The notes under the pieces: generated by a model
Seen by the model: only the letters and a program-made list of their open reading frames with translations
Told to the model about the DNA's origin: nothing
The model's database searches: none
From: Chloroflexota bacterium
GTDB lineage: Bacteria; Chloroflexota; Dehalococcoidia; JACPQD01
Direction of reading: 5' to 3'
NCBI GenBank assembly: GCA_016190665.1
Contig: JACPQD010000091.1
Location: 27,246 to 91,245 of the forward strand
Length of the DNA stretch: 64,000 nucleotides
In this document: in pieces, positions 8,789 to 55,618 of the stretch
Layout: each line of letters begins with the position of its first letter
How positions within the stretch are numbered: the stretch's first letter is position 1
Made by a program: the position numbers and the translations under genes

Positions 8789-9197
8789 ATGAGCAAGAAG
8801 ATGAATCCGGTCGTCCATTTCGAAATGCCCGTATGATGACGGGAAACGTGTGGCAGATTTCTATACCGCTGTCTTTGGCTGGCAGACGAAGATGCTGGGA
8901 GAGGACATGGGTAACTACGTGCTTGTTACGACCACCGAAGTCGACGAGAAGGGGTGGCCGAAACAAGTCGGCAGAATCCACGGGGGTCTTTATCCCAAAA
9001 AGGAAGATTGGCCCGCTCAATACCCATCGGTGGTTATCGGCGTTGATGACATCAAGGAGTCCATGAAGAAGGTAGCGGAAGCAAGCGGTAAAGTGCTCGA
9101 CGAGCCCGTGGACATACCCGGCATTGGCCTGTACGTTTCGTTCTTCGACACGGAAGGCAACCGCGTGACCATGTTGCAGCCAAACCCCGGGATGTAG
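8789..9197 (+). pseudogene. VOC/glyoxalase-family gene with a 1-nt frameshift near codon 14
   Basis: ATG 8789 gives MSKKMNPVVHFEMPV then TGA. Shifting by one base at 8828-8831 (ccc g) continues YDDGKRVADFYTAVFGWQT..., the expected HFEMPYDD...FY..VFGW glyoxalase N-terminus (ORF 8850..9197). Confidence 0.65.
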
Positions 9198-9287: not shown

Positions 9288-9650
9288 ATGCTGAACCTCG
9301 GTTCGATCATGATTGGCTCCATGCAACCCGAAGTCCTGGCGGAGTTTTATGAAAGAGTACTTGGAAAGCCAGCCGATTTTGCGGAAGAGGGCTGGCACGG
9401 TTGGCAGGCAGGCAGTGCGTATTTCATGGTTGGAGAACACTCAGAGGTCAAAGGCAAAGCCAAAGAACCCCAGAGAGTCATACTTAACTTTGAAGCAAAA
9501 GAGGTAAAAGTCGAATTTGCCAGAATCAAAGCCCTGGGCGCAAGAGTAATAAAGGAACCGTATGAAATGGAAGGTTCCTGGATCGCAACCTTCGCCGACC
9601 CAGACGGAAACTATTTTCAGCTAACGTCTCCTTGGGAAATTCAAAAGTAA
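9288..9650 (+). CDS. VOC/glyoxalase-like family protein
   Basis: 120 aa. LGSIMIGSMQPEVLAEFYERVLG...ATFADPDGNYFQL is the typical VOC fold signature. SD gaggagg lies upstream. Confidence 0.8.
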   Translation: MLNLGSIMIGSMQPEVLAEFYERVLGKPADFAEEGWHGWQAGSAYFMVGEHSEVKGKAKEPQRVILNFEAKEVKVEFARIKALGARVIKEPYEMEGSWIATFADPDGNYFQLTSPWEIQK

Positions 9651-9831
9651 TCGGAGGGACACGCCTGCTCCTGGCGCTCGTCCGTACGGCAAGGAGCCTG
9701 GTCGATTGAGGTATTCCGCATGCGCTACAGCCCGCCAGGTTGTCTATCTCCTGCCTCGTCGAACAAGCATGGTTCAGCAGCCGGTTCACATGGTCCCGAA
9801 GGATGCCAGCCAATGATGCGAGGTGAAAGGC

Positions 9832-10134
9832 GTGTGTAGGAACATCCGGACCCTGTATAACTTCGATCCTCCGTCGACCGCGGACGAGATCCGGGCGGCG
9901 GCCCTGCAGTTCGTGAGGAAGATCAGCGGATTCGCCACACCGTCCGTTGCCAACGAAGCGGCCTTCAATCGCGCGGTCGGCACAGTCGCACAGGCATCCG
10001 CTACCCTGCTCGCCTCCCTGGTGACCGCCTCTTCTCCCAGGAACCGTGAGGTCGAGGCCGCCAGGGCCCACGCTCGCGCCGTTCACAGATTCGGCTCGCA
10101 GCGGAGCGGGGGGGAGGCGGTGATCACAACCTGA
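9832..10134 (+). CDS. DUF2277 domain protein
   Basis: CRNIRTLYNFDPPSTADEIRAAALQFVRKISGF matches the DUF2277 N-terminus, which starts MCRNI. I therefore place the start at GTG 9832 rather than the ORF-track start 9823. Confidence 0.7.
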   Translation: MCRNIRTLYNFDPPSTADEIRAAALQFVRKISGFATPSVANEAAFNRAVGTVAQASATLLASLVTASSPRNREVEAARAHARAVHRFGSQRSGGEAVITT

Positions 10135-27157: not shown

Positions 27158-28348
27158 ATGAAAGAGCGCATTAAGCTATTGATCGCGGACGACCGGGAGA
27201 AGGAGCGGGCTGCTTTGCGGAAGCTGCTCGCCGCCAGCGCGATAGACGTTATTATCGTCGGCGAAACCGGGGTGGGCACGGAAACGCTGACCGCGGCCGA
27301 AGACGTGGCGCCCCATGTCATCCTGTTGAGCCTGGAGGAGCCTCTGGCCCGTCCGCTACGCATTCTCGAGTCTCTCGCCCTCACCGGCACAGCCCCGATC
27401 ATCGCGCTATCATCGATCGGCGAACGCGACTGCTTGCGCAAAGCGATGCGAGCTGGAGCCAAGGAATACCTGGTGAGGCCACTGAACGCCGAGGACCTGG
27501 CGACCGCCATCGAGAGCATTTACGCGGCGGAACAGCATAGAAAATCTCTGCTCTCCAGCGGCTCCACCGTCAGCGCTCGAGCCCAGGGGGAGGTGATCAC
27601 CGTTTTCAGCGCTAAGGGCGGCACGGGCAAGACTACCCTTGCTGCTAACCTGGCGGTCGCCCTTGCTCTGGAAACGGAGCGACGCGTAGCGCTCCTCGAC
27701 CTCAACCTGGAACAAGGCGACGTTCCCCTCATGTTGGACGTCGTTCCCGAGAAGACTGTCCTCGACCTCGTCCAAATCATCGATCGCGTTGAATCGGACA
27801 TGATTGAGGGGTTTCTCTGCATGCATAGCTCCGGCGTGAAGGTACTGGCCGCTCCCAACGAAATGAAAGCTGGAGAGTTGATAAACAGCCAGCATGTCAG
27901 GAAAATCATCATGCTGCTAGCCAAACTCTTTGACTATGTGGTGATCGATACGCCGCCGAATCTCAGCGCCACGGTGCTGGCCGCCTTTGAACTGTCCAAC
28001 GAGATCTTTCTCATCACCACGCCGCAGATCACCTGCCTGAAGAACTCCAGGATCGTGCTGGAGTTGTTGAAATCCCAGCATCCCTATGGCAGCAAGGTAA
28101 AGATTGTAGTGAACGACGCCTACATGCCGGACGGTATCTCGCATGCCGAGGTGGGCAGGGCGCTGGACTACCCGATTTTCTGGAAAATACCCTATGACAC
28201 CCTTGTCGTCGAATCCATTAAGGTGGGAGAACCCTTCGTACTGGCGAAGTCGGCAGGCAAGGTCTCCCGTAATGTGTCCGATCTAGCGAGGATTCTCGGT
28301 GGAGTACAGAAACAGCGCAAGAAATTGCTCGGAATATTCGGAAAGTAG
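27158..28348 (+). CDS. tadZ: TadZ/CpaE-type ParA/MinD ATPase with N-terminal receiver-like domain
   Basis: The IKLLIADDREKERAALRKLL receiver-like N-terminus is followed by VITVFSAKGGTGKTTLAANLAVALA, a deviant Walker A. Confidence 0.85.
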   Translation: MKERIKLLIADDREKERAALRKLLAASAIDVIIVGETGVGTETLTAAEDVAPHVILLSLEEPLARPLRILESLALTGTAPIIALSSIGERDCLRKAMRAGAKEYLVRPLNAEDLATAIESIYAAEQHRKSLLSSGSTVSARAQGEVITVFSAKGGTGKTTLAANLAVALALETERRVALLDLNLEQGDVPLMLDVVPEKTVLDLVQIIDRVESDMIEGFLCMHSSGVKVLAAPNEMKAGELINSQHVRKIIMLLAKLFDYVVIDTPPNLSATVLAAFELSNEIFLITTPQITCLKNSRIVLELLKSQHPYGSKVKIVVNDAYMPDGISHAEVGRALDYPIFWKIPYDTLVVESIKVGEPFVLAKSAGKVSRNVSDLARILGGVQKQRKKLLGIFGK

Positions 28349-43101: not shown

Positions 43102-43332
43102 ATGAAGATCAGCTATGATCCCGGAATTGACGCCCTCTATATTCGCCTGCTCGAAGGGAAGCACGAGTGCCGCACCGTGCGGCTGAATGAAGAAGTTGCC
43201 CTCAACATCGGCAAGGGCGAGAAGCTCGTGGGCATCGAAATCCTAGATGCCAAAGGGATCTTGGAGGAGGGAATGCCAGCGGCGTGTGTGGTTGACCTAG
43301 ACGACGTCTCGACAGCCCAGAGGCCGGCCTGA
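43102..43332 (+). CDS. DUF2283 protein (copy 2)
   Basis: MKISYDPGIDALYIRLLEGKHECRTVRLNEEVALNIGKGEKLVGIEILDA. It lies 20 nt after the XRE gene. The 5-prime half closely matches copy 3 at 55364 at the nucleotide level. Confidence 0.82.
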   Translation: MKISYDPGIDALYIRLLEGKHECRTVRLNEEVALNIGKGEKLVGIEILDAKGILEEGMPAACVVDLDDVSTAQRPA

Positions 43333-45182: not shown

Positions 45183-45782
45183 TCATTGTGCCCCACTCAT
45201 CAACCCAGCCACCTCTTCCGCCCTTACCACCCTCGCCCCCAGCGCCACCAGACTGGCGTTTTCCCTGCTGTCGAGTGTCAAGACGGGCTTGCCCCAGCCA
45301 ATGACCTTCCTGGCCAGGGCCTCCGTCTTGCCGCCGGGAGCAGCGTAGGCAAAGAGGACCTGGTCCGCCAGAGTGGCGACGAACTCATTGCGCTTCTCGG
45401 ACAGCTCGACGGTGGGGCGCCGGAAGTGTTCGGCAAAGGGCGATAAGAGCAGCAGCCGTCCCTGCTTGAGAGCCGTTTTCCAGGCGGCCGGCAGGCGCAT
45501 GCCGTGAAGACTCCGGGCGGGGCAAATGATCACCGGCTGGCTGCCGCGAAGGAGGAGGTCAAGGCAGTCTTTCTCGATGGGCGATTGAAACCCGCCGACG
45601 ACGGTGACGCCGGCGTCACGCAACGCGCGAGCGAAATCGTAGGCCTGCACGATGGGTTCTCCCGGGCATCTCACCGAGCAGAAGAGGGCCAGCTTCCTCC
45701 CGCGAAGGATGCCAGGCTCTCCGAGCGAGAAGGCCGGATTAGTCAGGCCGGGGAAATGTATGGACGCTGGTATCAGCAACAC
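45183..45782 (-). CDS. Short DprA/Smf-like Rossmann protein (SLOG superfamily), lacking other DprA domains
   Basis: 199 aa. ..RKLALFCSVRCPGEPIVQAYDFARALRDAGVTVVGGFQSPIEKDCLDLLLRGSQPVIICPARSL.. parallels the DprA core (..SG.A.GID..H...L....T.AVL..GL). Confidence 0.7.
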   Translation of the reverse strand: MLLIPASIHFPGLTNPAFSLGEPGILRGRKLALFCSVRCPGEPIVQAYDFARALRDAGVTVVGGFQSPIEKDCLDLLLRGSQPVIICPARSLHGMRLPAAWKTALKQGRLLLLSPFAEHFRRPTVELSEKRNEFVATLADQVLFAYAAPGGKTEALARKVIGWGKPVLTLDSRENASLVALGARVVRAEEVAGLMSGAQ

Positions 45783-45853: not shown

Positions 45854-46267
45854 CTACTTGCAGGCAGTTCGAGCCTCTTGAGCTTCATGAAAACCAATGG
45901 CCCGGGCTAGAGCGGTAAGCATGTACTGGTTCAAACTGACTCCTTCAAGTTGCGCAACGCGTATCAACGATTCATGCATAGATGGAGGCATCCGAAGCAC
46001 TATTTTCCCGCTGGATTTTTGAGGCTCAACAGGTGGAGGAATGTTGACACCCAGCTTGAGACAGGTCTCAAACCATTCCGGTTTCTCAATCAGCAGTTCT
46101 TTGACGGCCTCTTCGGGGGTATTGCCGGTCATCGTCAAATCCGGTAATTCAACGTAGCCTGCCACGTAGTATCCGCCCTGCTCCGGCCGATACTTAACTG
46201 TCATGGTATAGGGCAGACTCATATAATATTCAATCTGCTTCTTGATATCGGTTTCACTGGTGACCAT
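45854..46267 (-). CDS. hicB: HicB-family antitoxin (no hicA present)
   Basis: ..YTMTVKYRPEQGGYYVAGYVELPDLTMTGNTPEEAVKEL.. plus the C-terminal RHH-like LRMPPSMHESLIRVAQLEGVSLNQYMLTALA. Confidence 0.85.
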   Translation of the reverse strand: MVTSETDIKKQIEYYMSLPYTMTVKYRPEQGGYYVAGYVELPDLTMTGNTPEEAVKELLIEKPEWFETCLKLGVNIPPPVEPQKSSGKIVLRMPPSMHESLIRVAQLEGVSLNQYMLTALARAIGFHEAQEARTACK

Positions 46268-46309: not shown

Positions 46310-46437
46310 GTTACTTCGTGTATAGGCGGTCCAAGTCCGCCACAAAGCCTTTCATGCGCTCCAGGCAGGCGTCGTACGGCGGCTCCAGGATATTCAGGGC
46401 GGCAAAGAGGAAGGCGCTGGAGCCGCAGGTGGGTCGA
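46310..46437 (-). pseudogene. Relic of a second Eco57I/PglX-like N6-methyltransferase (motif I region only, frameshifted)
   Basis: The minus strand reads (L)DP-TCGSSAFLFAALNILEPPYDACLERMKGFVADLDRLYTK*. It aligns at nucleotide level with 48940-49050 of the large methyltransferase (VLDPTCGSGAFLFAALNILEPLYEACLERMEVFVEELDR). Confidence 0.65.
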
Positions 46438-46457: not shown

Positions 46458-46808
46458 CTAAGCGCCCGCGATGCGGACGGCCGCATCAGTAACGGTGACG
46501 AAGCTGCCAGGAAGCCGGTCGGCGTGTCGCGCGAGCAGTTGGTGAAGCGCTGCAATCTTGGAGGCTGGCCGTTCGTCGTCAAGACGCAGAAGAACGACAC
46601 CCTTGTGCGGGCGCCCTCGTCGAAAGACCTTCTCGCCGAAGCCTTTGTCATTGGTGATGAGAATCCAGTTACCGTCAAAGGCCTTGCGGATTATGTCGTC
46701 ATCCTCCATGCCGCGAGCTTCCTCGAACACTGAGAAGACCTCGTGCCGCTGCCCGCGCAGCCACCGGGCGACGGACGGACCCGTGCATTCATCCACGAGA
46801 AAGCGCAT
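46458..46808 (-). CDS. DUF5615-family PIN-like (Mut7-C type) putative toxin
   Basis: MRFLVDECTGPSVARWLRGQRHEVFSV...DDDIIRKAFDGNWILITNDKGFG. Confidence 0.85.
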   Translation of the reverse strand: MRFLVDECTGPSVARWLRGQRHEVFSVFEEARGMEDDDIIRKAFDGNWILITNDKGFGEKVFRRGRPHKGVVLLRLDDERPASKIAALHQLLARHADRLPGSFVTVTDAAVRIAGA

Positions 46809-47057
46809 CTAGGCCGATTCCACGGCGACGGGGACGAATGTCGTATCCTCCAGCGACTTGGTGGCAAACAGCAGGCAGGCTTGAATATCTTCCGGAGTGA
46901 GTCCTTCATACTCTTGCAGGATCTCAACGACCGTTGCGCCGTGGGCGAGAAGATTCAGGATGTGCTCCACTGTCAGCCGTGTTCCCTTGATGACCGGCTT
47001 GCCTACCATCACCCCAGGGTCGGAGACGATTCGCTCCAAAAGTTGCTTGTCTCTCAT
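46809..47057 (-). CDS. DUF433-family putative antitoxin
   Basis: ..IVSDPGVMVGKPVIKGTRLTVEHILNLLAHGATVVEILQEYEGLTPEDIQACLLFA.. The stop TAG abuts the ATG of the DUF5615 gene. The start is placed at ATG 47057 (aggggg upstream). Confidence 0.85.
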   Translation of the reverse strand: MRDKQLLERIVSDPGVMVGKPVIKGTRLTVEHILNLLAHGATVVEILQEYEGLTPEDIQACLLFATKSLEDTTFVPVAVESA

Positions 47058-47237
47058 GTTGGCACCCCCTATCACTTTGCCCAGACTCGCCAGGGTACCA
47101 TTCTACCACTCACCTTCAGACAGGTCAACGCGTAGCCAATTCGTTGGCATTAGTGCAAGGCGGCTTTCTGGTCAACTTGGAATCCTGGCTATTGTGACCC
47201 TTGTTGGTCGACCTAGGGGCTCCGCCGCACTGAAACG

Positions 47238-50200
47238 CTAGCCATCTTCAGCACCAGAGTCCGTCCCCATGCGGTACTTGATGTCATAGTTGATGATGAA
47301 GTCCAACTCCTCTTCGGTGAAGCCGTAGTGCTTGGCGAGGACACTGTCAACGTGGTCCAACAGCGGCTTCGACAACCGAGGATAAAACTCCTGGTAGGTA
47401 ATCTCGCCTGTAAGCGATGACGTTTTGTTCTTCATTTGACTCGTCTGCCGATACTCTTTCATCAACTCTCCACACAGCTGTACGAGTTGATTAGCATTTG
47501 CCTGAGCAAGCGAGCTCAAGCCGACGGGGAATTCTCTAAGGTCACTTGGATTCAAATCTCGACAGTTTGTAGTCAAGATGAAATACCAATAATAGAGAGA
47601 ACTACTCAAAAGTGAGATGCTGATATCGCGCTTGCAGGCCGACTCCAACCATAGATAGTTTTCCCGGCTTGAAACGCCATTTTGACCATTCAGCACAAAT
47701 TTAGGCTGGAAATTTGTAAAAATCTTCCAGTACCGTCCGCCTCCAATACGATAGTACACTGAATAAGGTGATCTGGCCCCAAATTCACTACCTAATTGGG
47801 AATCCAAACCATTGAGTTTATGCAGTATACTATTTTCAGCTGATGAGCTCAGCTTTGGGATCACGTAGGGTTTGATTTCAGCATCCACCGGCTGATAGGC
47901 GATGCGGGCAAATAGACTTGGCCTTTCCTCGCTCGCCCATTTGGTCAGGCCAGTCGTGAAGACCTTGCATTGCATAGCACTATGAATTCTGGAGAGCCAT
48001 ATAGTCAATAGTACTTCTGCTCCGACGAATAGCTTGCTAGGCCTCTCTGCAAAATTGCTTAGCCATAGATGGTCTGATGAATCGCGGACTGCAGCCTGCA
48101 AAGCAGCCATTCTCTGGGTGCAAACAGTACTGATGGGCATTATGAAACCGAAGCTACCATTAGTCTTCAGGAGTGTCACAGCTCTTTCCGTCATGAAGGC
48201 GTACAGGTTTCCGCATTCAGTCGTAGCGTAGCCGTGCAATGAATATGTATTCCTGACTTTGCTATATTCCACGTATGGCGGATTGCCTATAATGACGCCG
48301 AAGCCACCATCCGCCATGATGCCATAGAACTCGACGAACCAATGGAAAGGCTGGTGGGTGGCCCTCCATTTTGCATAGGCGGCCATGTCTTTTTCGCCGA
48401 TTCCATATGTCGCTGACAAGTAGTGGTCTAGCTGGTCCCGCAGCTTCCCCAGGCCGTCGCGCACCAACCCCTTCCCTACGGCGAAGTCCCCCGCGTCCAT
48501 CTCGCGGCCGCTCTGGCTGTCCCTGAATTGCTGGAAGGCCCAGTCGGCTACCTCGGCGTCCTCTTCAATGCGCTTGAGGGTCGCTTCATCCTCGTCCGAG
48601 ACCATCCGGTGCTGCCCGTTAGGCCCCATGGTCATCGCATTCCGCACCGCATCCAGCGACGTAAAGCCCACCAGCGTGTTGCCGGCCCGGATGTTGAAGT
48701 CGATGTCCGGCAGTGGCTCCACATCCTCGACGCGCTCCACCTGGGCTACCAGCTTCAAGAAGAGCCGCAGCTTACAGATTTCCACCGCCTCCGCCATGAT
48801 ATCCACGCCGTAGAGGTTATTGAGCACAATGGACTTCAGGATGAAATAGCTCCTCCTGGGGTGCTTGCTCTTATCGTTGGCGTGTTCCAGCACCTTGCGG
48901 AAGTCGGAGAACTTCTCCGGGTGATGCTTCTCCCCGGACCTGTCCAGTTCTTCTACGAAGACCTCCATGCGCTCCAGACAGGCCTCGTATAAAGGCTCCA
49001 GAATATTCAGAGCGGCAAAGAGGAAGGCGCCGGAACCGCAGGTGGGGTCGAGCACGGATATCTCCTCGATGCTCTTCCAGAAGGCCCGCAGGAGGTCCGG
49101 CCCTTCGCAGGCCTCGATGACATCCTGGGCGAACTGGCGCAGGTCCAGATTACAGGTGATGAGGTCATTGATACTGTGAATGTCTCCGGCGGCGAGTTTG
49201 GCCCGCACCTCCAGCGGGTGCGGCGCGCCACATGCTCGCGCCAGGTCTCGGTAGCCAACGCGAAACTGTCATCGGCCGGACGGTTCCAGCCGCCCCGCTT
49301 TGCGACATCGGCGACGCCGGCAGCGATGCCTTCGGGAAGCGGCAGGTCGACGCCTTTCCTGACGGCCTCGTAGATATAGCGGTCCGGGTCATCCCGTAGG
49401 AGCCGCCAGACGGCGCCTTCAGGCCGGAAGGCGATGGCGCACTTCTTCTCGGCGGCGTCGAAGAGGAAGGGGATGATGGTGCTCTTGCTGATGTACTCGG
49501 TGATATCCTCTTTGGTATAGTAGGCCCCCATCTGCTTCTGGTTGATGTACTTCTCAAAGATATAGCCGAGCACGTCGGGGTTTATCTCGTTATCCGCCCG
49601 GGTGGGCCGCTCGTCCAGGTGCCATTGGTAGGCGTCAAAGAAATCGAATAGCCTTTCGAAAGCCTCGTCTGGGATCTGGATTTCGGGATTGTCATTTTCG
49701 AGCTGGTGTGTATCGAAGAGGCCGCCGTTAAGATAGGGGACATTCCCCAACAATGTGCTCAGGTCCCCTTTTCGGTCTTCCTTTGGTTGCGCGAGACCTT
49801 CATGGAAGAGACGCCGCAAAAAGTAGCGGTAGAAGGTATGGAATTTCCCTATGCCTTGGGAATGGCGGACCATCTGGAGGCGATTTCTCAAGTAGTGGTC
49901 ATCGCCGTCCAGGAATCCCTTCTTCTGAATAAAGTAGATGAACATGAGGCGGTTCAACATGAGAGAGGCGTACCACTCGCGATCGGCCACCGCGGTGATG
50001 CCTTCGATGAAGGAGAGGAAAGCCTTGTGTTCCTCCTTGAAGCGGTCATAGAAGCGCCTGGTCACCCGGTCCACGTCGAAGGCCTGGCGGACCTTGCCGA
50101 AGATGTCAACGATGGTCAGCTTCTCCTCTTCGTCGAGGCTGACCATGAGGTTCTGCAGCTTCTGTATCAGGGAGTCGCCCGGTTGGGCGCAGACATAGGT

Positions 50201-50549
50201 GTGCTCGCGTCGGGCAGCGGGCCTGCCTTTCTCCCGCCGGACCCATTGCCATGTCTGCACTGTCCTGTCCTGGTTCACGAAAACGACAATATGCTCGTGG
50301 GCGCTCTTGGCCACCTGGCGTTCGATCTTGCCACGGGTGGGATAGTCCGGGATTTGTCCTTTGGGACCAGGCTGGCACTCATAGGCCACCATGCCGCGCT
50401 TCTCGGCAATGGCATTGACCACGTAGTTGACGCCATCGTTCTCGACAACGAGCGGCGCGGTGATGGTTCCAGCCCAGCTCTTCAATGAAAAGCGCCGGCA
50501 GGTCGCAGCTCTTCAGCTTCTCTCGTATGAGCGTCGTGGTATCTGCCAC
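47238..50549 (-). pseudogene. Large Eco57I / BREX-PglX-like N6-adenine DNA methyltransferase, disrupted by two frameshifts
   Basis: Three collinear frames. (1) GTG 50549 gives VADTTTLIREKLKSCDLPALFIEELGWN. (2) ORF 49007..50485 has ..AIAEKRGMVAYEC.., ..LMLNRLMFIYFIQKKGFLDGD.., ..MGAYYTKEDITEY... (3) ORF 47238..49208 has ..VLDPTCGSGAFLFAAL.. (motif I) and ..VIIGNPPYVEY.. (motif IV). Frame changes lie near 50455-50468 and 49212-49220. Confidence 0.82.
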
Positions 50550-50630
50550 TAGCCTACCGCCTGCGATTTATCGTTAGTCATTGCTCTGCTCCGAACGGGA
50601 CTGGCTGCGTTCCAGACAAATCCCTCTCAA

Positions 50631-50679
50631 TCTCCCTTTGCCAAAGGGAGAGGTATCTTCCCCCTTTCGGAAAGGGGGA
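50631..50679. repeat. Two adjacent perfect 9-bp hairpins between the helicase and methyltransferase genes
   Basis: tctcccttt-gcc-aaagggaga (50631-50651) and tcccccttt-cgg-aaaggggga (50659-50679), followed by ttaaggggga. Confidence 0.7.
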
Positions 50680-50721
50680 TTAAGGGGGATTTATCGCTAA
50701 CGAGGCTTTAGATGCACTACA

Positions 50722-53700
50722 CTACTCACCCCCTGGCGGTGAAAAGAGGCCCAACGAACAGATGATGCGGGGCTCAGCTTCCGGCGCCTCTTCGCTGACC
50801 ACGCACAACCGGTCGTCGGCCCGCAGCGCGCAAACCAATTCCGCCAGGGTTTCATCGCTGACGCCCGACTTCAGTTGCCGGTTGAGTGTATCTATCGCGG
50901 ACTAGCGCAACGGGTAGCGGTAAATCTCGTCGATGGCTTTGGCGATCTCTTCACGGTCGAATAGCGTGCCTTTGATCTCGGTGGCATAACGCTTGAGGCG
51001 CTCGTACGTGCGGAAACGGGCGCCGGAGGGACGCCCGAGCTGGCCGCCCACCAGCTTCTCATCAGCGGTTACCTGTTTCACCGCCGTCTGGACCAGCCCA
51101 TGGTGCAGTTCGTGGCGCGGGATGGCCGGAGTCTCCGGCTTGCAGCGCGCCGCTTCCAGTATGCGCAACTGAGATTGCGTGACGCTTTTCCCGTCCTTGT
51201 CCACCCACGAAAGGGAATCGTTGCCTTCGCCAGTGCGGACGTATACTAACACGCCCTGCGGTTGATTCGTCGTACCGTGATGCGCCCGAGTCGAGTACAC
51301 GACATCGGGCAAGTCGGAGATAGTCTTCAGTAGAGCTGGGTCGGCGTCCGTGGCGTTCTTCCATATCTGATAGGCTTGGGAGGCCAGGTCTACCTCGGCG
51401 TCCGCTTCGCCATCGAGGATACCCGCCTTCTCGTTGTAGAGGTCAACTACTGGTTGACCGGTGGCCTCGTCCTCGAAGAACTCCTCATCGGTCCCGACCA
51501 CCTCAGCGTTTTCCCTGAGCCTCTGTCGCACGCGACCGCGAAGCCTTATAATTCGCTCTACGCCCTCGGCGGGCAAGAAGGAGTAGCAGAGTATCTCCTC
51601 TGCCTTCTGCCCGATTCTGTCGACGCGGCCGGCGCGCTGCACCAGGCGAATGATGGCCCATGGCAGGTCATAGTTGACCACAATATGGGCGTCTTGCAGG
51701 TTCTGGCCTTCGCTGAGCACATCCGTAGCTACCAGGACGCGAGTCACCTTGTCCGGCGAGACAACGGCCGTCTTTTCGTTGCTCTCCGGGCTGAATCGCC
51801 AGGCGTCAGCGGTGGGGTCAGCCGAATCGCCGGTGACTCCCCGCACGGCCTTGACTCCCCGTTCCTCAAGCTGCCGGGACAGGTAGTTCACTGTATCCGC
51901 GAATTGACTGAAGATAAGGACTTTGTCGTGCGGGTGCTGCCTGGTGATCAAGTGGAATAACGTGTCCAATTTGGCATCTTTCTTTGTATCCCAGGCGCCG
52001 CAGGAGTTGAGGACTGCGATGAGAGACTTCGCATCTGTGGCGAGATGAAGGGCAAGTTCCGGTCTGAAAAGGGAGGGACGCAGCCACCGGAAGCGCCGCT
52101 TGCAGGGGCCGGCGTAGTATTGATACGTCCTTGCTGCCTGTTCCCTGAATTCCTGCTCGGTGGGAATACGACTGAAGTTAGCCGCCGGCTCAGTCGCGGC
52201 ACTGTCGTCATCGGCGTCAAACATGTTGGGCGCGGCGGGATCTGCATCCGCATCCGAGGTGCGGGTATCGAGCAACTCGGCGGCCTGGGCGCCCAGGGGA
52301 ACGTCCAGGCCATTCTCTATGGCGTGAAGAACGACATAATTGCGCAAGATGTGCCGGTGTATGGACTGGAGAAAGGCAGGGCCGCCGCTTTCGAGGCGCT
52401 TGAATAAGTTGACGCGACAGAAGCCCATCAGCCGTTTGCCGCCGCGGGAAAGGTCTTGGAGTATCCTATCCTCAGAGGGCGTGGCAGGCGGTTGCGGACG
52501 TACTACCGTGTAGGCGCCAAGGCCGTAGCGCGGCAGGTTGAGGGCATTGACTGTATCTACTACCTTCTCCCGGTAGAGGCGAGCATACTGATCGGTCGGA
52601 TCATCGTCCTTTATCTTGAACTTCGCCGTCCTGGGGACGCGCACAGGGAAGTAAGACCTGGTGCCATCCTCGAAAAGGATGTACTTTCTGCCCGTGGCGT
52701 CGGTGTCCGCATAGTTGTCTTGAATGAAACTCCGGGTGCGCCGGACAAGGTACAGCCGCATAAGGTCCCGCCAGTCGTCGGCAGACTGGCTCTTCTCGAA
52801 GGCTGCCAGCGAATGCAGCGAACACTGATGGCGCCGAATAAACTCAGTCTCACCTATCTCCTTCAGAGCCTTCTCCGGCCTGATGCCGAGGTTCTTGTCT
52901 TCCGCCACAAAAAGGCGCAACTGCGCCGAAAGATCGAGATATGTCTTGTTGTACGGCGTTGCCGAGAGGAGGACACACTTGCTCTCGTTCTCCTGAACGT
53001 ATTCCATGATAGCCCGGTAACGGCTGCCTTCCTGGTTACGCAGGTTGTGGCTTTCGTCGATGACGACAACCCGGTATCGCCGCAAGTTGGGGAGTTCCTG
53101 GATGACCCGGCTCAGCGAGAGCACCTTAGCGATAAGGCGATACCTGTCGACGTAGTCTTGCCACATCTTAACCAGGTTCTTGGGACAGATTATGAGGGTC
53201 TCCAGGGAGTGGTCATCCTGGAAGATGCGAGCCAAAGCGGTAGCGACCAGTGTCTTGCCCAAGCCGACCACGTCGCCAATGAGCACGCCGCCGCGCTTGT
53301 TCAGATGATGGGCGGCTATCTTTACGGCGGCGGTCTGGAAGGCAAACAGCCTGTTGCCGAAATCTGCCGGAATATGGAATTCAGATAGCCCGGCGCGAGC
53401 CTCCTGGGAGAGGTGGTATGCCATCTTCAGATAGACGTGGTATGGTGGTGGCTGCTCTTCCCTGGCCCAACTCGTGTCAATGATCTCAGCGAGTTCGGCT
53501 GAAATATCAAGACACCACTTGTCGTTCCACCGGTCGTTGAACCATTTGGTGAGCTTGATACAGGCGTCCTGGTCAAGCACGTCGACGTTCAGTTCGCCCT
53601 GTGCCGACAGGCCGGCGAAGGTGAGGTTACTGCTCCCCACAAAGCCCACGCACGGGTTGTTGGGGTCAGTCCGGTGGAGGAGGTACAACTTGGCGTGGAG

Positions 53701-54106
53701 ACCGTGGCGCAGGAAAAGCTTCACGACGACCTTCCTGGCCTTTAGCTGGGCGCTCAACCGGCGCAAGCCGGCCTCGTCGTCATTCGTCGGCGCACCCATC
53801 AGGAGCTGTTCGTGGAATTCTTCCGCGACCTGCTTCTTAAGCCGGAGGATGGCCGACTGGTCGAGGGCGCCCTGTTGCGCCAGTCCGATGAGGGAACGAA
53901 GTTGTTCCCGAGGCAAGGGTTGCATCCCCAGCAGAAGGCGGCAACACGCGCCTTCACCGCCACACCAGGGTTCGATAAGCTGGTCAATGTGCTTCCAGCC
54001 ACGCAGGTTGAAGTATCCGACACAGAAGTCCGGTCGCTCGGACTTTGAGCGAGTCCCGAAGGGCGGGCAACAAAACTATTTCAATGTTGTCGAATATTCT
54101 CGGCAT
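50722..54106 (-). pseudogene. PLD(HKD)-nuclease + SNF2-family helicase fusion, disrupted by one frameshift and one in-frame TAG
   Basis: ATG 54106 gives MPRIFDNIEIVLLPALRDSLKV. After a 1-nt shift (~54039-54043) it continues ERPDFCVGYFNLRGWK... into ORF 50902..53925. That ORF carries the HKD motif HAKLYLL...GSSNLT, helicase motif I GDVVGLGKT, motif II VIDESHN and motif VI QRAGRVDRIGQ. After TAG 50902-50904 the same frame continues 59 codons (SAIDTLNRQL...RLCVVSEE...EPRIICSLGL) to TAG 50722. Confidence 0.8.
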
Positions 54107-54346: not shown

Positions 54347-54583
54347 TTGATACGTGCACGCGTTGGTTACATGAGGTCTTTCAGTAACTACATGAAGCAA
54401 AATCTCATTCCGGGGCTTGCTGATCTCAAGTTCTTCGAAGGTCTGGTGTCTCCTATCCTCGCCGCCAAAGCCGCCGAACCGGAGGCCGATGTCGCGGCGC
54501 TGGAGCGGGAGATCGACCAGTTGGTCTACCGCCTCTACGGGCTGACGCGGGAGGAGATAGCGATGGTGGAGGAGGGCGGGTGA
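54347..54583 (+). pseudogene. C-terminal remnant of a restriction-modification / PglX-type methyltransferase
   Basis: The ORF ends ...ALEREIDQLVYRLYGLTREEIAMVEEGG. That tail motif is characteristic of type IIG/BREX methyltransferase C-termini. No upstream body of the gene is present. Confidence 0.5.
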
Positions 54584-55363: not shown

Positions 55364-55618
55364 ATGAAAATCACCTACGATCCCGAGATTGACGCCCTCT
55401 ATATTCGCCTGCTCGAAGGGAAGCACGAGTGCCGCACGGTGCGGCTGAACGAGGAAGTCGCCTTCAATATCGGCAGGGGCGAGAAGCTCGTGGGCATCGA
55501 GATTCTGGACGCCAGGGAAGTTCTGGGGGCTTTACCAGCCGTGGTTTTGGAGGGCATTACCGCAACGACTGCCCCCGTAGCGTTGCGAGAGAAGCCTGAA
55601 AAGAATAGAAAATCCTGA
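55364..55618 (+). CDS. DUF2283 protein (copy 3)
   Basis: MKITYDPEIDALYIRLLEGKHECRTVRLNEEVAFNIGRGEKLVGIEILDA. It lies 9 nt after the TumE-like gene. Confidence 0.82.
   Translation: MKITYDPEIDALYIRLLEGKHECRTVRLNEEVAFNIGRGEKLVGIEILDAREVLGALPAVVLEGITATTAPVALREKPEKNRKS

Follow-up and report, generated by a model that had tools for sequence, protein, structure and literature searches.

Does a locus in which both large genes of a putative defence system are interrupted represent a system that has really been lost, and what kind of system was it? The question was raised by a stretch of 64,000 nucleotides (nt), hereafter the window (positions 27,246 to 91,245 of contig JACPQD010000091.1, our contig C81), of a Chloroflexota genome from the class Dehalococcoidia (GCA_016190665.1, G000). 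In this window, an original prediction made from the letters alone had recognized a gene pair carrying four inactivating lesions, a phospholipase D (PLD)-SNF2 helicase followed by a large gamma-class N6-adenine methyltransferase (methylase). Our results indicate that the locus probably holds a copy, inactivated in recent times, of a three-gene defence module that resembles restriction-modification (R-M) systems, is widespread and moves horizontally. Coordinates of the module follow the numbering of the whole stretch, and its three genes all lie on the minus strand:

50722–54106, minus strand: PLD (HKD)-SNF2 helicase-nuclease pseudogene (Pfam PLDc_2, SNF2-rel_dom and Helicase_C; family length about 1,128 amino acids)
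47238–50549, minus strand: PglX/Eco57I-like gamma N6-adenine methyltransferase pseudogene with a C-terminal target-recognition region (Pfam Eco57I, MmeI_Mtase and DUF7814; family length about 1,104 amino acids)
45183–45782, minus strand: intact DprA-fold (SLOG) gene of 199 amino acids, the third gene of the module

The domains proposed for the two large genes were confirmed by the Pfam profile search. The helicase gene starts with the ATG at 54106 and its natural stop is the TAG at 50724–50722. The translation obtained by joining its frames was 88–90% identical, over the full length, to an intact homolog (P0001), and the HKD motif, a Walker A motif (GLGKT), DESH and QRAGRVDRIGQ were all seen. 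The initial reading frame encodes MPRIFDNIEIVLLPALRDSLKV, after which it is out of frame until it reaches a stop. Homology to the family resumes in a second frame as SERPDFCVGYFNLRGW, and this frame is open over 1,057 codons up to a TAG at 50904–50902. Lesions were typed by codon-level DNA alignment against four intact relatives (loci L001, L102, L103 and L003), from which four could be read directly:

54041–54043 (about 54042), minus strand: helicase lesion 1, a 2-nt deletion after codon 22 in which one GT of AAAGTGTCC (GTGT) is lost
50902–50904, minus strand: helicase lesion 2, an in-frame nonsense TAG where the DNA of the four relatives has CAG or CAA, removing the conserved last 60 residues
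50458–50463 (50461/50460), minus strand: methylase lesion 1, loss of 5 nt, one CCGCG of the tandem CCGCG-CCGCG, after residue 31 or so
49209–49214 (49212/49211), minus strand: methylase lesion 2, a 4-nt deletion between the short direct repeats CTGC/CTGG, after residue 447 or so

In the protein alignment, the column of the nonsense codon was occupied by Gln in nine homologs and by Pro in one, and the codon could have arisen from CAG by one C-to-T transition. The 59 codons that follow, SAIDTLNRQLKSG...EPRIICSLGLF, matched the conserved C-terminus of the family. Gln had been expected at this position, and the possibility that homologs simply end at YPLR had been raised; they continue past YPLR, and as the 59-residue tail is conserved among them, the helicase has no natural end there.

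Concerning the methylase, the gene runs from a GTG at 50549 to a stop at 47240–47238 and is split over three frames (50549 to about 50461, about 50460 to 49212, and 49211 to 47238). Its first lesion falls in the stretch NHHR-[AT]-[TA]-PLVVE and its second in RTRC-[LM]-EVRAK. The N-terminal piece of 62 residues aligned with homologs (L001 and L003). The two large pieces covered positions 27–442 and 444–1097 of the 1,100 positions in the PADLOC model REase_MTase_IIG (PDLC03628), with E values of 1e-158 and 2e-186, respectively. The motifs DPTCGSGAF and NPPY were present in the translation. All four lesions of the original prediction were thus found where it had placed them, the second methylase shift at about 49212 rather than 49215.

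We considered the possibility that these interruptions are programmed, that is, that phase variation, TAG recoding or ribosomal frameshifting leaves the system switchable and not dead. Phase variation is common among Type IIG and PglX-type methylases, and relatives of the pair, Cj0031-like type II R-M genes found beside a PLD+SNF gene, undergo programmed inversions according to a table entry in Milman et al. 2023 (PMC9881135). In the window, however, the repeats at the deletions have two units and are too short for slippage switches, and all four sites are uninterrupted in the aligned intact relatives. Recoding of TAG was ruled out because TAG ends 1,542 of 3,329 long open reading frames (ORFs) and is the commonest stop codon for such ORFs in the genome. 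We found no inverted cassette of the module methylase; a methylase relic upstream of the helicase (54443–54583) was examined as a silent inversion cassette and rejected, as it belongs to a different methylase family. A programmed switch is therefore scarcely credible.

Examination of the boundary between the two genes revealed a feature that had been missed:

50552–50719, minus strand: 168-nt insert between the helicase stop and the methylase start, with TAGTG at both flanks
50615–50695, no strand assigned: 76-nt palindromic repeat resembling repetitive extragenic palindromes or miniature inverted-repeat transposable elements, the core of the insert, with a predicted hairpin of −48 kcal/mol

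The helicase stop overlaps the methylase start as TAATG in L001 and L020, and skipping the 168 nt between the TAGTG copies restores such an overlap in the window. Judged from the sequence, the repeat-bearing insert is a fifth disruption, one that would uncouple the two genes. BLAST matched the 76-nt repeat at 31 further places in the genome, 11 of these matches being of 60 nt or more, with copies including C44:9325–9404, C30:16355–16433 and C20:65167–65242. It also occurs in other families of the class at 81–90% identity, and two genomes (G008 and G014) carry many copies. A structured RNA in the spacer was tried and rejected. Rfam gave sub-threshold matches only (the plant MIR815 family, 31 versus 63 bits, and a Moco riboswitch, 14 versus 36 bits), which were judged to be due to chance because the spacer core is a palindrome. 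From comparison of sequences, insertions seem to recur at the helicase-methylase junction. In L102 (11384–11673), the junction contains an insert of 289 nt with ATGCCAGAC on both its sides. In L104, on the Synechocystis plasmid pSYSX, a small ORF and a VapC toxin gene are found at the junction (9456–10132).

Are the genes really broken in the organism? They might be intact there, with the deletions and the TAG representing consensus or assembly errors, for example in a low-coverage or strain-mixed island. Errors of this kind should be evenly spread, but 10.8% of the window's length contains four of its five known lesions (binomial estimate, p of about 6e-4). Other ORFs of 1,000–2,000 residues in the window and the genome are open, with about 9,200 codons of other long ORFs examined. 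All three indels are deletions of 2–5 nt at short tandem or direct repeats and none is at a homopolymer; 2-, 4- and 5-nt deletions at short direct repeats, together with a substitution, are unusual types of error. In addition, two methylase relics flank the module:

46329–46433, minus strand: motif-I relic of a related methylase gene, 105 nt, 82% identical to 48942–49046
54443–54583, plus strand: C-terminal relic of a type IIG-like methylase from another family, lying upstream of the helicase (C-terminal positions of PADLOC REase_MTase_IIG, E value 1.5e-10)

These relics and the insertion of a host-specific repeat cannot be sequencing errors, and therefore support real decay. By their sequences, the relics point to genes that occupied this hotspot earlier.

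A number of observations weigh against real decay. The source is a metagenome-assembled genome in 107 contigs with an estimated contamination of 6.1%. A VOC/glyoxalase gene (8789–9197, plus strand) is also frameshifted, with one extra G after CCC at about 8831 splitting the frame (HFEMP|YDD). This is a lesion outside the defence island that bears on the background rate, and while the clustering of lesions is non-random, their confinement to the module as originally proposed does not stand. Missense decay at conserved positions was absent, as would be the case for intact genes: not a single deviation was found at 221 of 221 invariant columns in the helicase, 46 of 46 in the methylase and 12 of 12 in the DprA-like protein, a record no worse than that of intact homologs. 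Under neutral decay, a rough estimate of 1.4–3.6 hits would be expected at the 267 invariant columns of the two large genes, with a probability of zero hits of about 0.03–0.25. The ratio of nonsynonymous to synonymous substitution rates (dN/dS) on the helicase branch was about 0.10–0.13 (a three-point estimate from pairwise values) against 0.03–0.10 in relatives, and is only mildly raised. We found no comparison genome nearer than class level, and among the genomes compared at that level only two (G023 and G028) carry the module, at 69–74% DNA identity. Exact-protein look-ups with the two largest ORFs of the window returned no second assembly of the lineage, and two metagenome scans with lesion-spanning patterns gave no match. 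Our literature searches found neither a name nor an experiment for the PLD-SNF2/methylase/DprA-like trio, so that any mechanism is drawn by analogy; the sole published mention of the helicase-methylase pair that we found is the table entry in PMC9881135.

Taking into account the lesion types, their clustering and the relics, we infer that the lesions are not artefacts, and real decay, as originally proposed, is likely the best reading of them; an artefact, although favoured by the assembly, the preserved amino acids and the isolated VOC frameshift, is unlikely. If the inactivation is real, it is very recent, because there are no deviations at invariant columns. On the same grounds, together with the mildly raised dN/dS, a long-standing pseudogene was ruled out.

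What, then, is the system that would have been lost? The helicase is a member of a very large family with strong conservation: more than 8,000 database proteins matched it, among them an archaeal one from Methanosarcinales. In a collection containing one genome per species, at least 588 stretches matched, and the 80 best loci were analysed. These were about 65% identical and came from Chloroflexota, Nitrospirota, Acidobacteriota, Verrucomicrobiota, Desulfobacterota, Proteobacteria, Planctomycetota and others; the module is also present on plasmids of model cyanobacteria, where candidate intact orthologs are SGL_RS01585/SGL_RS01600 on pSYSX of Synechocystis sp. PCC 6803 and a copy on plasmid NC_020056.1 of Anabaena cylindrica PCC 7122. 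Intact orthologous pairs, which the original prediction had proposed to look for in relatives, were found (for example L001). A homologous methylase lies directly downstream of the helicase on the same strand in 73 of the 75 loci with room for this comparison, usually within 60 nt. The pairing of the two genes was accordingly upheld, but the description as a two-gene system had overlooked the DprA-fold gene. When all neighbouring ORFs were clustered, one further recurrent family emerged, of about 212 amino acids; among the 57 loci with at least 1.5 kb of room, 34 carry a member downstream of the methylase. The 199-residue protein of the window was 45–61% identical to this family and 77% identical to the copy in a near relative (L102), and its gene is the sole copy in the genome. 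An AlphaFold model (mean predicted local distance difference test (pLDDT) score 93.8) had DprA from three species and ShosA as its nearest folds, and PADLOC matched the protein to PsyrA (3e-11). From its recurrence downstream of the methylase, the module is therefore judged to comprise three genes, of which the DprA-fold gene is facultative (about 60% of loci). It follows that the stretch with the HicB and DprA-like genes and the helicase/methylase pair are parts of one module and not separate findings. The view that this is a compact, poorly characterised R-M-like defence system holds.

The methylase was examined further at the level of structure. In the structure model (pLDDT 79), the top Foldseek match was BrxX/PglX, aligned over nearly the whole length, followed by CamA, LlaBIII, DrdV and MmeI. 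From the secondary structure of the model, residues 1 to about 125 are read as a compact alpha/beta unit. Among the invariant columns of the N-terminal region (W27, P69, R74, H88, W102 and W104), no acidic-acidic-Lys triad stands out. As no D...(D/E)xK triad is conspicuous among them, DNA cutting is probably delegated by the methylase to its PLD-SNF2 partner. The C-terminal part has a different character:

47238–48500, minus strand: variable target-recognition part of the methylase, GC content 0.49, lower than in the remainder of the gene and in the genome (both about 0.60)

Compared with L001, the methylase is a mosaic in which the N-terminal 447 residues are 91% identical and the remainder averages 55%. 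The recognition region (beyond residue 750 or so) shared no more than 66% identity with any database protein, yet was colinear over its full length. Such a mosaic is, at the sequence level, the usual picture of recognition-region exchange between systems, and the low GC content is consistent with a region gained from elsewhere.

These features raised the possibility that the system is only partly dead. A C-terminal methylase piece of 656 residues (47238–49208) forms an open frame with a GTG start, motif I, NPPY, all catalytic motifs and the full-length recognition region. It might still be made, acting as an orphan adenine methylase beside the DprA-like gene after restriction has been lost; R-M systems are known to lose restriction while methylation is retained. 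The piece, however, lacks the conserved 447-residue N-terminal region that is present in every homolog, and the methylases of MANTIS and bacteriophage exclusion (BREX) systems need partners for DNA binding (bioRxiv 10.64898/2026.09.23.753747). An active orphan methylase is consequently improbable.

We compared the module with named defence systems. The original prediction had pointed to likeness with defence island system associated with restriction-modification (DISARM), Type ISP and BREX systems, and had noted that drmA/drmB and pglZ or brxC-type genes are missing from the locus. The latter was borne out by profile searches. PglZ (PF08665) and DUF499 (PF04465, MtsA) had no match in the whole genome, with control genomes matched in both cases; DUF3780 (PF12635, MtsB) was matched neither in the genome nor in the controls. 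DUF1998/MZB (PF09369) matched only on two other contigs (C71 and C14), not on that of the window. The likeness was real in terms of shared parts and partial matches to hidden Markov models, but curated models stayed far below their cut-offs: DrmD (NF038317) scored 125.5 bits against 610, the BREX PglX model (NF033452) 60.4 bits against 500, and a curated 'phospholipase D-like anti-phage' model was also far under its cut-off. PADLOC matched HmaA to the C-terminal part of the helicase only. A sequence search of solved structures with the helicase, as single sequence and as profile, returned only generic superfamily 2 (SF2)/SNF2 proteins, with neither SauUSI nor MtsD among the best 60. Because PglZ and DUF499 were unmatched in the genome, DUF1998 lies off the contig and the curated models fell short, the module is not DISARM, BREX or MANTIS.

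By analogy, the nearest characterised relative in logic would be MANTIS, formerly Gao_RL, a Type-2 DUF499-centred, BREX-related system composed of MtsA-D. MtsD is a dimeric PLD-SF2 protein with one PLD site that acts downstream of methylase-directed recognition, and MANTIS needs a DUF499 loader and DUF3780 (bioRxiv 10.64898/2026.09.23.753747; PMC12839542). Both systems are methylation-based with specificity directed by the methylase, and in both an N-terminal single-HKD PLD nuclease is fused to an SF2/SNF2 motor, MtsD being likened by architecture. Unlike MANTIS, the module has a 1,104-residue PglX/Eco57I-like methylase with its own N-terminal and recognition regions, and in place of the DUF499 loader, unmatched in the genome of the window, it has a DprA-fold third gene. 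With BREX it shares a gamma-class NPPY adenine methylase, the module's model aligning with BrxX/PglX, but the genome has no PglZ or BrxC/DUF499 and the module has a dedicated helicase-nuclease. Class 1 DISARM (DrmA, DrmB, the PLD protein DrmC, the SNF2 protein DrmD and DrmMI) likewise unites an SNF2 helicase, a PLD nuclease and a large N6-adenine methylase, and partial matches were obtained to DrmD and DrmMI; in the module, PLD and SNF2 are fused, and DrmA and DrmB (DUF1998/MZB) are absent from the locus.

Type ISP (LlaGI, LlaBIII) and Type III R-M systems resemble the module in combining a site-reading adenine methylase, an ATP-driven SF2 motor and a nuclease. In contrast to Type ISP, the functions are distributed over two polypeptides, encoded by separate genes in all 73 loci; in contrast to both, the nuclease is a PLD protein and not Mrr or PD-(D/E)xK, and the motor is SNF2-like. 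The methylase is also far larger than the Mod subunit of Type III. Among Type IIG/IIL enzymes (Eco57I, MmeI and Cj0031-like, under which REBASE and PADLOC file such methylases), the match to PDLC03628 runs end to end, but the N-terminus of the module methylase is read as alpha/beta in the model and shows no conspicuous D...(D/E)xK triad among its invariant columns. As for the third protein, its PADLOC match to PsyrA and its DprA- and ShosA-like fold recall PsyrTA and ShosTA. In PsyrTA, the companion of the DprA-like protein is a RecQ-family helicase. The protein of the module differs in consisting of the Rossmann core only (199 residues), in being facultative and in often being set apart by cargo genes.

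By analogy with these systems, a mechanism can be proposed. The PglX-like methylase, of about 1,104 residues, would read a short DNA site through its variable C-terminus and methylate an adenine as the mark of self. At unmodified sites, it would license its partner of about 1,128 residues, the single-HKD PLD nuclease-SNF2 motor. This partner would have to dimerise to form one active site, and would then translocate with ATP and cut. The DprA-fold protein would be a facultative accessory that may bind single-stranded DNA or nucleotides; alternatively, it may hold the nuclease-motor in check, as the PsyrA/ShosA antitoxins do with their partners. In the window, the two large genes would be dead and the DprA-like gene intact, with recent lesions in a decaying island of defence and toxin-antitoxin genes.

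We tentatively suggest, as a possibility of limited probability, that the trio is a distinct, unnamed class of ATP-dependent restriction system with no AAA+ loader, whose parts this decayed copy would show to be separable. If this is true, the nuclease-motor and the methylase are lost jointly, whereas the DprA-like gene and the adjoining cargo slot persist. This persistence would suggest that the DprA-like protein has a function of its own, as does the slot in which toxin-antitoxin and defence genes accumulate. The family is abundant, and we found no name or experimental description for it. Its minimal logic, that of a motor-nuclease licensed by a methylase, would compare with MANTIS and BREX. 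The copy in the window illustrates how such modules may die: the two large genes bear slippage deletions and, in the helicase, a nonsense codon; a repeat and toxin-antitoxin genes have entered the gene junctions; and the accessory gene survives, all in a genome with two intact sister systems. The module family merits experiments; the copy itself is an ordinary, recently broken example that adds little biochemistry.

The sister pairs, both apparently intact and belonging to a sister subfamily at about 30% identity, are located elsewhere in the source genome, on contigs C20 (28948–36727, L100) and C97 (59424–66972, L101). Their gene order is the reverse of that in the window, with a large PglX/IIG-like methylase first and PLD-SNF2 second. 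The C20 pair consists of ORFs of 1,455 and about 1,140–1,200 residues, depending on the start, and the C97 pair of ORFs of 998 and 1,166 residues. Because of these two intact pairs, losing the system of the window may cost the cell little.

The spacing between the methylase and the DprA-like gene ranges from zero to 2.9 kb across loci, with variable contents. In the window, this slot contains the 105-nt methylase relic (46329–46433) and the following cargo genes:

46458–47075, minus strand: DUF433/DUF5615 (PIN-like) toxin-antitoxin pair (Pfam)
45854–46267, minus strand: HicB-family gene (Pfam HicB)

In other loci, the slot contained AAA_21 plus DUF4276, the YhcG nuclease, MTaX1-HNH, PIN, DUF3800 and Schlafen-AlbA. 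In the closest intact relative (L001:16725–23390), the methylase is followed by a set of genes resembling a cyclic oligonucleotide-based antiphage signalling system (QueC-like, SMODS, PfkB/nucleoside deoxyribosyltransferase, Cap17-like, RNase T and SAVED), which, judged from gene content, is another case of defence cargo attached to the module. In the window, direct repeats of 151 nt (43102–43252 and 55364–55514, 89% identical), which correspond to DUF2283 gene copies, bracket a 12-kb stretch containing the whole module and its neighbours.

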